Shown piece after piece: positions 1 to 6,108 of a DNA stretch of 64,000 nt. A program made the translations under genes and the position numbers. The stretch's first letter is position 1, and every line of letters begins with the position of its first letter. Location of the stretch: sequence record NC_028248.1; one strand, given 5' to 3'. The DNA is from Escherichia phage slur16. The notes beneath the pieces were generated by a model. It worked only from the letters and a program-made list of their open reading frames with translations. It did no database searches and had not been told where the DNA came from.

Positions 1-789
1 GGGAAACTTACCCTTCATTTCACCAGTGTATACCTTCTCTGGGGCGTTGATGGCATCATAGAACCTTCTGTTCACTTCCTCTGCTTGTTTGTTGGTGGCG
101 CAAATTGTGAGAGCATCTGTTGGTACACCACCTTTGTAACAGCGAGCATTAAGTTCTGCTACAACCTCTTTTATGCGACGACCCTCACGAACACAGTTGA
201 GCATTGTGGCAAATCGAATAGACTCCTGTCGGAACTGATCTATTAGGGCTATGTTGTGGAGGTCAAGCTCTTTCCAAGATTCGGTATAGCAACACAGGTC
301 CGTATGGTAGAAGTTGAAATAGGCCTCCTTCTCCATAAAAGAGACAACAGGAGGAGCCTGGTAAAAATCGCCAAACAATATGACCTGTATGCCTCCGAAA
401 GGTTTGTCATTTTTTCGAAGGAAGCGGAGTTTCCTATCCATCTCTATAAACTTATCAGCACGGATCATAGAGATTTCATCGATAATTAGGATGGTAAATG
501 CCTTGCTTTTCAAAGGCTTTGCTGTTTTTGCCCTTATTGCGGTCCAGTCTGACTCCATGCTCACACCTGCTGCAAGATCGAAGGTTCGGTGTGCTGTTGC
601 TCCATTAACGTTTAAAGCGGCTACCCCTGTCGGGGCAACCGTTATGCAAGAGTCTCCATACATTGACTGGATCATGTTGATGAGGTACGTCTTCCCACAA
701 CCTGCGGGTCCTGAAACGAAGACATTCTCACCACTCATGATTGCAACGAGGGCAGCATCTGTGCCTACATCATACTGCCCTTTTTCCAT
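1..789 (-). CDS. SF1B helicase, Pif1/Dda/RecD-like (3' end beyond window start)
   Basis: Manual translation of minus strand from ATG at 789..787 gives Walker A GPAGCGKTY, Walker B IIDEISM and ILFGDFYQAPPV, typical of Pif1/Dda helicases. GGAGG RBS upstream; TAATG stop/start overlap with the upstream gene. No stop within window. Confidence 0.75.
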   Translation of the reverse strand, partial: MEKGQYDVGTDAALVAIMSGENVFVSGPAGCGKTYLINMIQSMYGDSCITVAPTGVAALNVNGATAHRTFDLAAGVSMESDWTAIRAKTAKPLKSKAFTILIIDEISMIRADKFIEMDRKLRFLRKNDKPFGGIQVILFGDFYQAPPVVSFMEKEAYFNFYHTDLCCYTESWKELDLHNIALIDQFRQESIRFATMLNCVREGRRIKEVVAELNARCYKGGVPTDALTICATNKQAEEVNRRFYDAINAPEKVYTGEMKGKFP

Positions 790-1994
790 TACGCCTCCTC
801 GTAAAGAATGTCGATAGTGTTACCGTCACGATCAACTACATATTCAATAGGGTCTCCATCTTTGCGTGCTTCCGGAGCTACCACAATCTCATAGCGGCAT
901 GCACGGCACTTAGCGCTATTGTGTTGGTATGGCACACTAACCACATCTGCAGGGTCAACCATAACAGTCATTACAGTGCCGTAGCTCTTTGCATACTCTT
1001 TGCTGGCGCAGTGTAAGCCATAGGAGCACGCAGCTTCAGGATCATCCTCTACAAAGTTACGAGGCATGGATACAAAAGCACCTTGGTATTGTGGGACTTT
1101 ACCACTGTGCCAATCCACCCACTTGCTGCCGTTAAACTGAACCCCTTTGTAGCAAATGATTCGACCATCTTCTGCAATCTGGATATCGTTGGCCTGCATA
1201 AAGTCGTAGAGCATGTTTACAGATTTTGCAGAAGGATTGCGTAGCAGGCGAACGAGGAATTTCACATAGCGGTCATCCAGTGTTCCGTCTGCATAATCTT
1301 TCTCAATTTTCTTTGCAATGGTGGATCGCATCTCTACACCGTAGTAGTAGAGCTTACCATCTTTCATGATCAGGTTGTCTGCAAGTGTGGTGAACTCATT
1401 CTTGCGTTCCAGCCAGACAAGGATTTCACCAATTGCCTCATCATATTCCTGAACAGAGATATGGTCGAAGACTTTCTGGTAAACTTCCTCACTTTCGCTG
1501 CGGCGAATTTCAAAAATGCCTTCGTTGCAGGTGATCTGGAGGAGTTCCCCGCAAATAACTACCAAAGGTTCGATGCTTCGAGTCTGTTGCTGAGACACAC
1601 TACTCACCACTTCCAGCACCGGATCTTTGACTTCTACTAAAGGTTCTTCTGACTTGATTGCTACTCCAGTGAACCCCACACCGTGAACAACACACAGTGG
1701 GTATACCACGCCCCAACGTTTAACGGAACCTTCGCCTAAATCTAAGATCATGGCGTACTTACCGTTATCTTCCAGACCGTATCGAAATAAACGGGCTTCT
1801 TCGCGGGTTTCAAAATCCTCACGGGTGTAGCAGACGCTGTCACGGTCAGGATCGAACAACTCTGGGGCACCCACTGCCAGTGTCCAGGTTGTGTCGCCTT
1901 TCTCAATAGTACATGTGAAACCCTTCTTCTCAAGTTCTGCACGGCGGTCGCGTGCTTCTTTACGAGTTTTGAAGTGTTCGTAGATGAAAATCAT
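789..1994 (-). CDS. hypothetical protein (~401 aa)
   Basis: ORF 789..2030; start moved to ATG at 1994 (MIFIYEHF) which has an AAGGAGA RBS and removes overlap with the upstream gene. No motif recognised. Confidence 0.55.
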   Translation of the reverse strand: MIFIYEHFKTRKEARDRRAELEKKGFTCTIEKGDTTWTLAVGAPELFDPDRDSVCYTREDFETREEARLFRYGLEDNGKYAMILDLGEGSVKRWGVVYPLCVVHGVGFTGVAIKSEEPLVEVKDPVLEVVSSVSQQQTRSIEPLVVICGELLQITCNEGIFEIRRSESEEVYQKVFDHISVQEYDEAIGEILVWLERKNEFTTLADNLIMKDGKLYYYGVEMRSTIAKKIEKDYADGTLDDRYVKFLVRLLRNPSAKSVNMLYDFMQANDIQIAEDGRIICYKGVQFNGSKWVDWHSGKVPQYQGAFVSMPRNFVEDDPEAACSYGLHCASKEYAKSYGTVMTVMVDPADVVSVPYQHNSAKCRACRYEIVVAPEARKDGDPIEYVVDRDGNTIDILYEEA

Positions 1995-2004
1995 AACTGT
2001 CTCC

Positions 2005-3987
2005 TTATTTGGTGTTATTCTTTGTATCAATCAGCTCACGGTATTCAATCATAGCAGGGGTGTCCCAATATTTCAAGCCTACATGCTTCAAAAGTGGATA
2101 TTTCTTTTCCAATCTTGCAATATAGGCCTTCCCGCATTTGACTCGGTTGGCGATTAAGATTTTGGCACGATGATTTAGCTCACTATGCTTCCACGCGGTG
2201 TTACCTTCCCACTTGTGGAAATGTGGCCGATAATTTCCAAAATCTTGCATGGGGATAATTTTCCCCAATTGTCTATACAGGCTGTCATATGAAGTTTCAT
2301 TTGCTGCGCGAGTCAGTAAGAATTTCCAAGCATCCTCTTTCAACAAATGTTCCACACTCTTCTCTGTAACATACTGGCAATCAGGATCAGTCCAAAGCAG
2401 ACGAGATTCTGATACCAGGTACAGATCTTCCCCTTCAGGAATCTGAAGTGCCGCACGCACACGGTCATAATTTTGCTGGTAGATGTTACTCAGCTGTCCC
2501 AGCCAACAACTTCCACGTTGGATATCACCCTCATAAGGGATGCAGTGTTTAATCTTCCGGAACTCTGCCTTAGTAATACGCTCACGGCGAAAGTAACCAT
2601 CCTTCTCAAGTTTTTTAACCCAATAACCTGGCTCATAACGAGTTTTTGTTTCACCTTTCTTGACAGGTCGGCGAGGGAGCTCTGATAACAATTTGACCGT
2701 ATCTGCAAAGAACGGGTGGTGTGCCGCTTCTTTAAACTCTTCCACCAGATCCGTGTTACGGCAATAGAAAACGTTGCGTCCGGTGATCTCGCTTAAGTAG
2801 TTACACTTATTTCGGTTATATTTGCCGTCTCCGTCGTTAAATACTAAATAGACTCCCCGCAAAAACTCTGACTTTCCATAACGAGCATAGCCTATGCGGC
2901 CTTTATTTAAGCCGCCAGCGAAAATTTCACAATCGCCTAAGTCTCCAAGTCCTGTTTCTTCCCAACGGTTCCACATAAAGTTTTTGCCGAAGATGTGTCC
3001 GAACACCCCACTATTCTTCATCATTTCACGTGCTTCTGCGGAGGTTTTTGCCGTCTCCAGTTCTGCAACAACTTCTGCCCCGCGAAGACGTATACCTTCT
3101 TTGACAAAGGCCTCCAGGCGATCCTGGAATCCACCGTCGTCATGGCCCTCTATGGTCCATTCACGCCCAGGGTTAATATTGCAATCCCCAATAGGAATTT
3201 CCACGCAGATTGCAGGGTAATCGGTCAATGTCTCCAGGAACTTAGAGCGGTAAGGTTGGTGACCCATCACAACACGGCTCTCATCAGAGCTGGTATAACC
3301 TTTCAGGATAGTCATTTTCCAACCATCTTTCTCGTAGCGATACTGCGCCTCAACCTTGTCACCTTCCAGCATCTTACTGGTCATAGGGTCGGTAACGGTA
3401 AACGGAAACTTTGCATAGCGTAGGCATGACGCAATAGCAGTGCGATATTTCAGAACATGCTCTTTCTTAACATGGAACTGAACTTTTACCCCGTTGTGCT
3501 CTTCAGTCTTCCGCTCGCGGATCTTGGTAACGTTTGGGATACCCTGATCCAAGAACAATAGATATGTGCTTTCAACACCGTTGTGCACACTGATCACATC
3601 GAAAGTGTCCACCATGCTGAACGGGGCCTTTGAACCTACACCTTTATTACCTACCAGAGCGTTGCTGTTGCGCTTGGTTGACTCCCCGAGGTTCATGAAA
3701 GTGTTGCGGACCATCTCTTCTGACATACCCAATCCAACGTCCTGCACAAAGAAGTATGGTTCAAGGTCTGTAGGGGAGTGAATGATGATCGGTACATCAC
3801 CCCGTCCAGACTCAACATGGGAGTCCACAGCATTGAAGATTGGTTCACGGCAGCTTGCCAGCACCTTATCTTCGTAAATCCCTTTAATGATTAGCCCAAA
3901 AGTCTCTTTGTTCAGAGAAATTGAGCCCCTGGTGACCTCCATATTTCCGGTTAGTACTGCTTTAGTTTCATTACTGTTTACAATCAT
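2005..3987 (-). CDS. GHKL (Bergerat-fold) ATPase-domain protein with large uncharacterised C-terminal region
   Basis: N-terminal motifs EPIFNAVDS (N box), DVGLGMS (G1, Hsp90/MutL-like DxGxG) and GNKGVGSKA (G2). No Toprim EGDSA motif, so not a GyrB-type topoisomerase subunit. C-terminal ~450 aa unassigned. Confidence 0.6.
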   Translation of the reverse strand: MIVNSNETKAVLTGNMEVTRGSISLNKETFGLIIKGIYEDKVLASCREPIFNAVDSHVESGRGDVPIIIHSPTDLEPYFFVQDVGLGMSEEMVRNTFMNLGESTKRNSNALVGNKGVGSKAPFSMVDTFDVISVHNGVESTYLLFLDQGIPNVTKIRERKTEEHNGVKVQFHVKKEHVLKYRTAIASCLRYAKFPFTVTDPMTSKMLEGDKVEAQYRYEKDGWKMTILKGYTSSDESRVVMGHQPYRSKFLETLTDYPAICVEIPIGDCNINPGREWTIEGHDDGGFQDRLEAFVKEGIRLRGAEVVAELETAKTSAEAREMMKNSGVFGHIFGKNFMWNRWEETGLGDLGDCEIFAGGLNKGRIGYARYGKSEFLRGVYLVFNDGDGKYNRNKCNYLSEITGRNVFYCRNTDLVEEFKEAAHHPFFADTVKLLSELPRRPVKKGETKTRYEPGYWVKKLEKDGYFRRERITKAEFRKIKHCIPYEGDIQRGSCWLGQLSNIYQQNYDRVRAALQIPEGEDLYLVSESRLLWTDPDCQYVTEKSVEHLLKEDAWKFLLTRAANETSYDSLYRQLGKIIPMQDFGNYRPHFHKWEGNTAWKHSELNHRAKILIANRVKCGKAYIARLEKKYPLLKHVGLKYWDTPAMIEYRELIDTKNNTK

Positions 3988-4484
3988 TTATTGCGCTCCT
4001 TGTAGTAGATATGACTCCCGAATTGAGCTGTCCTCTGCATCTTTTTTGCCCATTTCGGTCGTACTTTGGTTGTATGGTAGTGTGTTGCTCCACCTGTTAT
4101 GTCCATAGCCATGTATGCAACATGGTTGTTATTATAGACCTTTAGAAGCATCTTTGCAAGACTTTTAGCGTGATCCCATGAATCTTTTTCTGTCACCTTA
4201 AAAGTTTTGCCGTGGTTTGTCCACGAAAACTGGTTAGGTTGGTAGACAATCTTTCTTATAGTGTCTGGGTATTTGGGGTGAGATTTCCTGTTTAGTGTGG
4301 CAAATCCTGATGCCAGCATACCCATCGTGCCATCCCCTCTAGCCTCCCTGTAGATATTGCATGCCAGAATGTTTTCCTTAGTATCTGAGGGCTTGCAAGT
4401 ATGATATACTTTTTGTTTTGGTGCTGCAACAACAGGCAGCGATAAAAATGCGCTCAAAATAATAGCAAAGATCTTAATTTTCAC
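3984..4484 (-). CDS. secreted cell-wall hydrolase, SleB/CwlJ-like (Hydrolase_2 family)
   Basis: N-terminal signal peptide MKIKIFAIILSAFLSLPVVAAP followed by YREARGDG...LNR...YQPNQFSW, matching the EARGE / NR / QFS hallmarks of SleB-type hydrolases. Confidence 0.55.
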   Translation of the reverse strand: MKIKIFAIILSAFLSLPVVAAPKQKVYHTCKPSDTKENILACNIYREARGDGTMGMLASGFATLNRKSHPKYPDTIRKIVYQPNQFSWTNHGKTFKVTEKDSWDHAKSLAKMLLKVYNNNHVAYMAMDITGGATHYHTTKVRPKWAKKMQRTAQFGSHIYYKERNK

Positions 4485-4491
4485 AATAACT

Positions 4492-4520
4492 CCAAATAGA
4501 AAATCCCCGCCGAAGCGGGG
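4492..4520 (-). terminator. rho-independent terminator candidate
   Basis: Plus-strand CCCCGC-cgaa-GCGGGG hairpin (4505-4520); on the minus-strand transcript it is followed by a U-rich run (revcomp of 4492-4504). Lies between gene ends 4534 and 4484. Confidence 0.5.
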
Positions 4521-4923: not shown

Positions 4924-6108
4924 TCAAGCTTTAGCCAAAATGGCGCTAAACTCTTCACCAAACTCTTTTACAATCTTCATCAGGTTTGGGTATGCTTTAA
5001 TCAGCTGAGCAACAATCTTGTCACGCCCTTTACCGATAAGCAAGGCATTTCCTAAGGCATTAGGTTTCATCATCGCCATAAAGACTGAGAATACAAAATC
5101 TCGGTTCTCGTCCTTGAAATTTTCCCAAAGGAAATCGAGGAAGTTTGCCACACAGCTAACAAGATCTTCGTCGGAGATACTTGCATTTTCCATCATATTA
5201 CGAATAGCGATACAACCTTCAGACCCAAGAATCCACAAGATGTCTGGCTGTTTAGGACCTATGTATTCTTTGCAACCCCCTGCCATAATCCGACCGATTT
5301 CCGGTAAGTTGCGTTTCTTGGTGTGGTAGGTCCAGATCTCTACCGCTGCAGTGTGACCAATAGCACCTTGCAGAAGAACACGGGCCATAGCGTCAGAAAT
5401 AATACCGCTGTCAAAATCGTGCAAGATGTCAGATGCAGCAACCCAAGATCGCGGTGTGGCAAAAGATGGACAATTAATCTCAGCCATAGCCTCATAATTA
5501 TCGATAGCTGATGGAACTCTTTTCAGATACCCAATTACAGAGGAGTGCACCCCATTGAGGAATGCGTAGTCCTCAATAAACACCTCTGCATTGCTTGTAA
5601 CCTCTACAATGATAAAGCGGTTAGCCAGAGGAGCTTCGAGCGCCGAAAGAACAGCACCATCTGTAGAACGGTTACCCGCAGCCACAAAAACAGAGCCTTT
5701 AGGGAATGCATAGGTGCCGCACTTGTGGTCGAGCATAATCTGCATTGCAACCTTTTGCAGATAGTTATCTGCATGAGTAAGCTCATCCAGAAAGATAATT
5801 CCACCCCAGTTCGGATCTGCAGGCCAAAATTCTGGAATTGCAAACACTGTACGTGTAGTTCCATCAGCTTCTACAGGGATAGGTAGCCCAGATAAGTCGG
5901 CAGGATCTTTATCTGACAGCCGCACGTCAACCAGGTTGTCATCTCGCTCACCGAACATATTATCGGCGATCTGCTTCATCACCTGGCTCTTTCCCACGCC
6001 CATTGGTCCTAAAATCAGGACAGATCGGTTATGACGCTGGGCAAACTGAATGATAGCTGGCAACTCACGGACAGTGATTTGACCACTTTCAAATACGTTT
6101 CTTGACAT
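4924..6108 (-). CDS. AAA+ ATPase, MoxR/CobS-like
   Basis: Walker A LILGPMGVGKSQ, Walker B IIFLDELTHA, downstream sensor region VFVAAGNRS; size (~394 aa) typical of MoxR/CobS (AAA_5) proteins. Confidence 0.7.
   Translation of the reverse strand: MSRNVFESGQITVRELPAIIQFAQRHNRSVLILGPMGVGKSQVMKQIADNMFGERDDNLVDVRLSDKDPADLSGLPIPVEADGTTRTVFAIPEFWPADPNWGGIIFLDELTHADNYLQKVAMQIMLDHKCGTYAFPKGSVFVAAGNRSTDGAVLSALEAPLANRFIIVEVTSNAEVFIEDYAFLNGVHSSVIGYLKRVPSAIDNYEAMAEINCPSFATPRSWVAASDILHDFDSGIISDAMARVLLQGAIGHTAAVEIWTYHTKKRNLPEIGRIMAGGCKEYIGPKQPDILWILGSEGCIAIRNMMENASISDEDLVSCVANFLDFLWENFKDENRDFVFSVFMAMMKPNALGNALLIGKGRDKIVAQLIKAYPNLMKIVKEFGEEFSAILAKA

Follow-up and report, generated by a model that had tools for sequence, protein, structure and literature searches.

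Probable rIIA-rIIB counter-defence pair and neighbouring replication-cluster helicase in an Escherichia phage

Three minus-strand genes at the start of the DNA analysed here (64,000 nucleotides of Escherichia phage slur16, NC_028248.1; "the window" means this whole stretch) follow one another so closely that they raise the question of whether their products, a GHKL ATPase, a protein of 401 amino acids (aa) and a Pif1/Dda-like helicase, work together. An earlier note had proposed just that: a translationally coupled DNA-metabolism module with an uncharacterised middle component. We find instead that the GHKL protein (660 aa) and the 401-aa protein are, by homology, RIIA and RIIB, and that the region is very probably a Vequintavirus rIIA-rIIB counter-defence pair followed by the Pif1/Dda-like helicase of an adjacent replication cluster. 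RIIA and RIIB act jointly, and their demonstrated role is phage growth on hosts with the lambda RexAB abortive-infection system. The two genes are among the most famous gene pairs in genetics, known since the 1950s, and the locus itself is already known, having been annotated in sister phages and tested functionally in a phage that is 97-99% identical. The genes and their parts are as follows:

2005..3987, minus strand: rIIA gene, 660 aa, stop TAA at 2007-2005
3133..3912, minus strand: predicted GHL-type ATPase module of RIIA, approximately aa 26-285
1995..2007, minus strand: junction of the rIIA stop (TAA 2007-2005) and the rIIB ribosome-binding site (AAGGAG 2006-2001, 6-nucleotide spacer); sequence reading
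789..1994, minus strand: rIIB gene, 401 aa, stop TAA at 791-789
1689..1988, minus strand: N-terminal lineage-specific module of RIIB, aa 3-102, tandem beta-alpha-beta-beta repeats
879..1571, minus strand: conserved core of RIIB, aa 142-372, with motif C323-S-x-G326-L-H328 and K283, R312, K362, R364 and Y368
787..800, minus strand: overlap of the rIIB stop and the helicase start as TAATG (791-787), preceded by GAGGAGG (800-794); sequence reading
1..789, minus strand: SF1B Pif1/Dda-like helicase, N-terminal 263 of 456 aa, cut by the window edge

The middle protein is thus far from uncharacterised. Its residues 132-375 match the RIIB profile phrog_609 (E 1.3e-61) and residues 172-371 are 37% identical to T4 RIIB (BLASTP, E 4e-39). 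Homologues were found by tblastn in 2876 phage records spanning many host genera, mostly annotated rIIB, and of 1.84 billion cluster representatives scanned, 7639 belonged to the family at E<=1e-3. All close RIIB homologues carry a precomputed PF26926 assignment. Structure prediction of the protein alone, one of the checks that the earlier note had called for, gave a predicted local distance difference test score (pLDDT) of 71 overall and 80-95 over most of residues 160-320, resolved both the repeats and the core, and returned RIIB proteins as the named significant fold matches in BFVD (n=28), save one "Transposase."

The RIIB model consists of four regions: two beta-alpha-beta-beta repeats (residues 3-42 and 54-102, with the common motif F-x-[TS]-R-x-[ED]-A-R ... 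W), a disordered linker (103-141), the core (142-372) and a short beta unit at the C-terminus. Of the 2876 phage records, just 128 cover at least 80% of the protein, which marks the N-terminal module as peculiar to Vequintavirinae-type phages. The helix-turn-helix (HTH) of the T4-type architecture was sought in the RIIB of the window and of GAP31 with no match, while Ackermannviridae RIIB carries HTH_38 (E 6e-8), the N-terminus of T4 RIIB has sub-threshold matches to several HTH families (E ~1e-4 to 6e-5), and Felix-like RIIB has an N-terminal HTH that we counted as T4-type architecture. Several of 40 sampled RIIB relatives contained HTH-type domains, and two an acyl-carrier (PP-binding) domain. 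RIIB without an HTH is an architectural variant, and its membership of the core family is unaffected: in the core alignment, C323, G326, H328, K283, R312, K362 and R364 are invariant and S324 and L327 nearly so. A search of the PDB gave no fold match for the core; this, and the presence of lineage-specific repeats in place of an HTH, are the mildly new aspects of the protein.

A SPOR domain (PF05036) was considered for the RIIB N-terminus and rejected, its score falling under the Pfam threshold and appearing in just 2 of 25 relatives. No signal peptide was found in RIIB and no conserved transmembrane segment in either RIIA or RIIB; the one hydrophobic stretch of RIIB (95-113, KD 1.69) is not conserved in relatives, which argues against membrane insertion. 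Elsewhere in the family, many distant relatives (P0152-P0298) have the core at the N-terminus and a C-terminal extension, the reverse of the order seen here, and one chimera-like sequence (P0005, 498 aa) joins TPR repeats to a 99% identical RIIB part.

The identification of the first protein is equally direct. RIIA residues 1-657 align with positions 1-723 of the 725 in phrog_612 (RIIA; E 1.8e-124), BLASTP aligns the N-terminal 198 residues with T4 RIIA at 28% identity (E 3e-21), and a Pfam HATPase_c_3 match (E 1.8e-8) bears out the earlier call of a GHKL ATPase. An N-terminal GHKL/Bergerat ATPase and a predicted transducer-like second domain come first, ahead of a C-terminal region particular to this lineage. 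All three ATPase motifs are intact: motif I is E48-x3-N52-x2-D55, with E48 at the position of the general-base glutamate, motif II is D83-x-G85-x-G87 and motif III is G113-x2-G116-x-G118. Each of these nine named residues is invariant in an alignment of 23 sequences that are 19-68% identical, as are R275 and E276 of the second domain. We infer that RIIA would be an active, dimerising ATPase of the GHL type, with R275 as a candidate phosphate sensor by analogy with other members of the class. The phosphate sensors of Hsp90 (R380) and GyrB (K337) are the analogues used here. The PADLOC and NCBIfam defence and anti-defence libraries returned nothing beyond sub-threshold GHKL matches for RIIA and no meaningful match for RIIB.

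What holds these genes together in other phages was assessed in 80 RIIB loci taken with 10-kb flanks from IMG/VR, together with four from GenBank, in which the RIIA GHKL domain and SF1B helicases were located by tblastn and a profile hidden Markov model (HMM). In every locus with at least 3 kb of upstream flank (61/61), the rIIA GHKL domain immediately preceded rIIB in the same orientation, an obligate pairing. Phage RB43 has a natural single RIIA-RIIB protein of 1049 aa (UniProt Q56C47), the predicted structure of which matches our RIIB model (Foldseek E 8.8e-16), and the phrog_609 profile itself covers both proteins, its N-terminal columns matching RIIA and its C-terminal columns RIIB; the fusion and the spanning profile both support the physical unity of RIIA and RIIB. 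The conserved unit is the rIIA-rIIB pair, not the trio. One further family member (P0072, 330 aa) joins about 60 N-terminal RIIA residues in frame with RIIB from about residue 141; this may be a deletion that arose naturally, like the classical rIIA-rIIB fusion of T4 r1589, or else an artefact of assembly.

The role of the pair can be read from very close relatives. When bases 1-4000 of the window were compared with phage records, 119 matched, all at 90% identity or more; Escherichia phage slur12 (LN881735.1; Vequintavirus, an rV5-like myovirus) is 100% identical over these bases. The slur12 record annotates rIIA and rIIB as "hypothetical protein," and in sister records (inoa, navn, APECc02, the bov phages and BASEL Vequintavirus isolates) the cell-wall hydrolase, rIIA, rIIB and helicase are all annotated. 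Sixteen records (MG0656xx) labelled "Campylobacter phage" share 97% identity with this region of an E. coli Vequintavirus, and their host labels seem doubtful. The proteins of the Vequintavirus EdH4 (MK327930) are 98.6% (RIIA), 97.3% (RIIB) and 99.3% (helicase) identical to those of the window, and EdH4 was among the five phages (with T4, MM02, SUSP1 and N4) in which RIIA or RIIB was knocked down by CRISPRi-ART with dCas13d (Adler et al., Nat Microbiol 2025, PMC11879866). As presented in the main text of that paper, knockdown left plating unaffected on Rex-free E. coli and lowered it on cells expressing lambda RexAB, so that the Rex-dependent phenotype was obtained in a phage nearly identical to the one described here. 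The EdH4 RIIB, 97% identical, has no HTH and still counters RexAB, so the anti-Rex activity must lie in the RIIB core, in RIIA, or in both.

The third gene presents a different picture. Its product matches Pfam PIF1 (PF05970) at E 1.2e-32 for the fragment in the window and 4e-32 at full length (456 aa; L001:7419-8789), as well as two PHROG profiles, phrog_325 (Dda-like helicase) and phrog_30356 (helicase). A 172-aa stretch of it aligns with T4 Dda at 27% identity (E 9e-6), and its Walker A (GPAGCGKT) and Walker B (IIDEISM) motifs are recognisable. The earlier assignment to the SF1B Pif1/Dda-like helicases stands on these matches. In slur12 the helicase is followed by a small open reading frame (ORF), a DNA methylase, a DnaB-like replicative helicase and a family A polymerase (PolA), so the helicase is most simply taken as the first gene of a replication cluster.

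Among the sampled loci, a helicase lay within 2 kb downstream of rIIB in 15 of 79, or in 5 of 32 RIIB clusters (70% identity), namely four Vequintavirinae-type clusters and N4, where the helicase is 1.5 kb off and behind two small genes. In Felixounavirus-like, Ackermannviridae and most other sampled loci, the 10 kb on either side of rIIB contained no SF1B helicase, and an HMM built from five SF1B helicases to catch divergent ones returned a set of loci identical to that from tblastn. In T4-like phages, dda lies 7.5-9 kb upstream of rIIA. Conserved gene order in relatives had been set as one of the points on which the proposed module could fall, and the helicase falls by it, being syntenic with rIIB only in Vequintavirinae-type loci and, loosely, in N4. 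The proposed trio therefore survives as the rIIA-rIIB pair and not as a unit that includes the helicase.

Two loci from Seunavirus-like contigs have a 227-aa ORF between rIIB and the helicase (L012:10711-11394 and L014:10711-11394); it has no Pfam match, retains the stop/start overlaps and is possibly a free-standing homing endonuclease. The helicase orthologue of the second of these (L014:11396-13681, on a Seunavirus-like IMG/VR contig) is 761 aa long, against 436 aa in the first (L012:11396-12706), the difference coming from an intein-like insertion within the Walker A motif (GPGG|C...VTGN|SGKS).

The tight coupling of the three genes is genuine and every coordinate given for it holds: the GHKL gene stops at 2005, rIIB starts at ATG 1994 behind a strong Shine-Dalgarno sequence (AAGGAG, 2006-2001) that overlaps the rIIA stop, leaving a 10-nucleotide spacer between the genes, and the rIIB TAA (791-789) and helicase ATG (789-787) have one base in common within the TAATG at 787-791. 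As a sign of a module, this coupling carries little meaning. Over 50 kb of the genome, 50 same-strand junctions had a median gap of 10 nucleotides, with 14 of them overlapping and 26 at 10 nucleotides or less; the trio junctions (10 and -1 nucleotides) are therefore typical, and amount merely to the default spacing of this genome. The chain is also longer than three genes, since the gene 3' of the helicase overlaps it by 4 nucleotides and the stop of an upstream hydrolase gene overlaps the rIIA start (ATGA). The features upstream are:

3984..4484, minus strand: SleB/CwlJ-like cell-wall hydrolase (Pfam Hydrolase_2, E 2.1e-19) with a signal-peptide-like N-terminus
4505..4520, minus strand: intrinsic-terminator-like hairpin CCCCGCTTCGGCGGGG with a T-run, just upstream of the hydrolase; a terminator is annotated in EdH4

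The hairpin is likely the boundary of the preceding transcription unit. Counts of promoter-like and terminator-like signals were at the expectation from shuffled sequence, and this strong hairpin was the only convincing one. It stands only about 20 nucleotides ahead of the hydrolase start codon with no obvious promoter in between, so the hydrolase-rIIA-rIIB-helicase chain may need either read-through or a promoter that is not of the sigma-70 type. The signal-peptide-like N-terminus of the hydrolase reads MKIKIFAIILSAFLSLPVVAAP; since EdH4 has a separate lysozyme elsewhere, this hydrolase is perhaps not the main endolysin. A MoxR/AAA-like ATPase of 394 aa (4924-6108, minus strand; phrog_1297, E 3.5e-111) is encoded a short way upstream of the rII cluster.

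How the pair might work can be sketched tentatively. RIIA, with motifs I-III intact and R275 as a candidate phosphate-sensing residue, could be a dimerising clamp, driven by ATP, by which RIIB is held or remodelled, and the RIIA/RIIB complex might then mask or remove either the intracellular signal that activates RexA or the membrane consequence of RexA; we regard this scheme as possible but rather doubtful. The helicase most probably works in replication or recombination with no dependence on rII, and would be co-transcribed and translationally coupled with it only because this genome packs nearly all of its early genes in that way.

Several points weigh against reading the locus as a counter-defence pair with an unrelated helicase behind it. 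The order rIIA-rIIB-helicase is found in all sampled Vequintavirinae-type loci, even between lineages in which RIIB is only 35-50% identical, and N4 also has its SF1B helicase downstream of rIIB. The anti-Rex result in the main text of PMC11879866 is a collective statement for five phages, the molecular mechanism of rII is not settled in the literature (PMC8594841, PMC11879866), and in the words of the BASEL paper it is a locus "long-known yet poorly understood" (PMC8594841). Expressed by itself, T6 RIIB is toxic, and a gasdermin system of bacteria senses it as a trigger (Wein et al., PMC10312443), so RIIB may act beyond partnering RIIA.

The persistence of the helicase next to rIIB is the main reason to consider that RIIA, RIIB and the Pif1-like helicase could form one three-protein DNA-metabolism machine in the Vequintavirinae, one that might, for example, act at the membrane on intermediates of replication or recombination and owe its stoichiometry to translational coupling. 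T4 rII has topoisomerase II genes around it and dda less than 10 kb away, the closest folds to RIIA include DNA enzymes (TopoII, MutL, MORC), and many RIIB proteins have DNA-binding HTH domains. In the classical genetics of T4, rII mutations are reported to suppress DNA ligase defects. Against this stand the absence of a helicase from the 10 kb around rIIB in Felixounavirus-like, Ackermannviridae and most other sampled loci, its distant, non-adjacent position upstream in T4-like phages, and the mobile-looking 227-aa ORF that separates rIIB from the helicase in the two Seunavirus-like loci. Of the 50 junctions, 14 overlap in the way that the trio does, those of the genes flanking the trio included, and the lack of an rII knockdown phenotype without RexAB, as reported in the main text of PMC11879866, is unlike what a core DNA-metabolism factor would give. 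We consider such a machine unlikely, and "DNA-metabolism module" is not supported as a description of the rIIA-rIIB pair. It is similarly improbable that the adjacency reflects a functional link particular to the Vequintavirinae, in which the RIIB core has exchanged the HTH for the tandem beta-alpha-beta-beta module and has been kept translationally fused to the helicase. If it were true, the helicase, or DNA structures made by it, would be a client or partner of the RIIA/RIIB ATPase complex, tying rII to the replication or recombination intermediates that are thought to trigger RexA and giving a tractable handle on the 70-year-old question of rII protein function.

Less probable still is that RIIB is mainly a DNA-binding transcription regulator with RIIA as its ATPase partner, the anti-Rex effect being an indirect result of altered gene expression. 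T4 RIIB orthologues have been classed as specific transcription factors (Iyer et al., 2021, PMC7824862), and an N-terminal HTH is present in Ackermannviridae RIIB, in several of the 40 sampled members and, below threshold, in T4 RIIB. However, the window RIIB has no HTH and its 97% identical EdH4 counterpart nevertheless counters RexAB, which makes the HTH dispensable for the conserved function and places that function in the core, and the invariant polar residues of the core (C323, H328, K283, R312, K362, R364) suggest a binding or catalytic site rather than a DNA-reading head. That RIIA and RIIB are literal lysis inhibitors that time lysis with the upstream hydrolase, a SPOR-like RIIB N-terminus binding peptidoglycan, is barely credible: PHROG and GenBank product names do read "RIIA/RIIB lysis inhibitor" and the SleB-like hydrolase does overlap the rIIA start, but RIIB, with neither a signal peptide nor a conserved transmembrane segment, cannot reach peptidoglycan, the SPOR score is sub-threshold and confined to 2 of 25 relatives, the hydrolase-rIIA linkage was not found in T4, N4, Felix-like or Ackermannviridae loci, and the literature puts the rapid-lysis phenotype down to prophage exclusion systems rather than to any control over lysis (PMC8594841, PMC11879866).

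The reading as an anti-Rex pair with an independently acting helicase behind it has one practical use, the correction of the two "hypothetical protein" labels in slur12. To a long-known locus it adds that RIIA appears to be of the Hsp90/MutL/TopoII (GHL) type, that the RIIB core has no relative in the PDB, and that the N-terminal module of RIIB seems interchangeable (HTH or repeats) without loss of anti-Rex activity.

Set beside known systems, RIIA has motifs I-III in common with the GHL ATPases (Hsp90/HtpG, MutL, GyrB/ParE/TopoVI-B and MORC), although sequence identity to them is just 9-19%; unlike them, it has no Toprim, endonuclease or Hsp90 C-terminal dimerisation domain, its C-terminal half is specific to RIIA, and its partner is RIIB. 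The helicase has the PIF1 domain and the Walker A and B motifs of the T4 Dda/Pif1-RecD2 group of SF1B helicases, and differs from T4 Dda in a position adjoining rIIB that is limited to Vequintavirinae-type phages.

The closest classical counterpart is the anti-RexAB locus of T4, in which the order and strand of the genes are the same, A directly before B, and in which the N-terminal GHKL ATPase of RIIA and the core of RIIB are homologous to those described here, down to the same invariant core residues. The two loci diverge beyond these parts: the RIIA proteins cannot be aligned past about residue 200 by BLASTP, two beta-alpha-beta-beta repeats and a disordered linker stand where T4 RIIB has its N-terminal HTH, and rIIB is followed by the helicase here and by denB.1/denB in T4. 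The RB43 fusion contains an RIIB core like that of the window and carries RIIA and RIIB on one polypeptide, whereas here they are encoded by separate genes. From EdH4, finally, the window and slur12 differ only at the level of strain sequence; the genes are laid out identically from the hydrolase through rIIA and rIIB to the helicase, and the terminator ahead of the hydrolase is the same.

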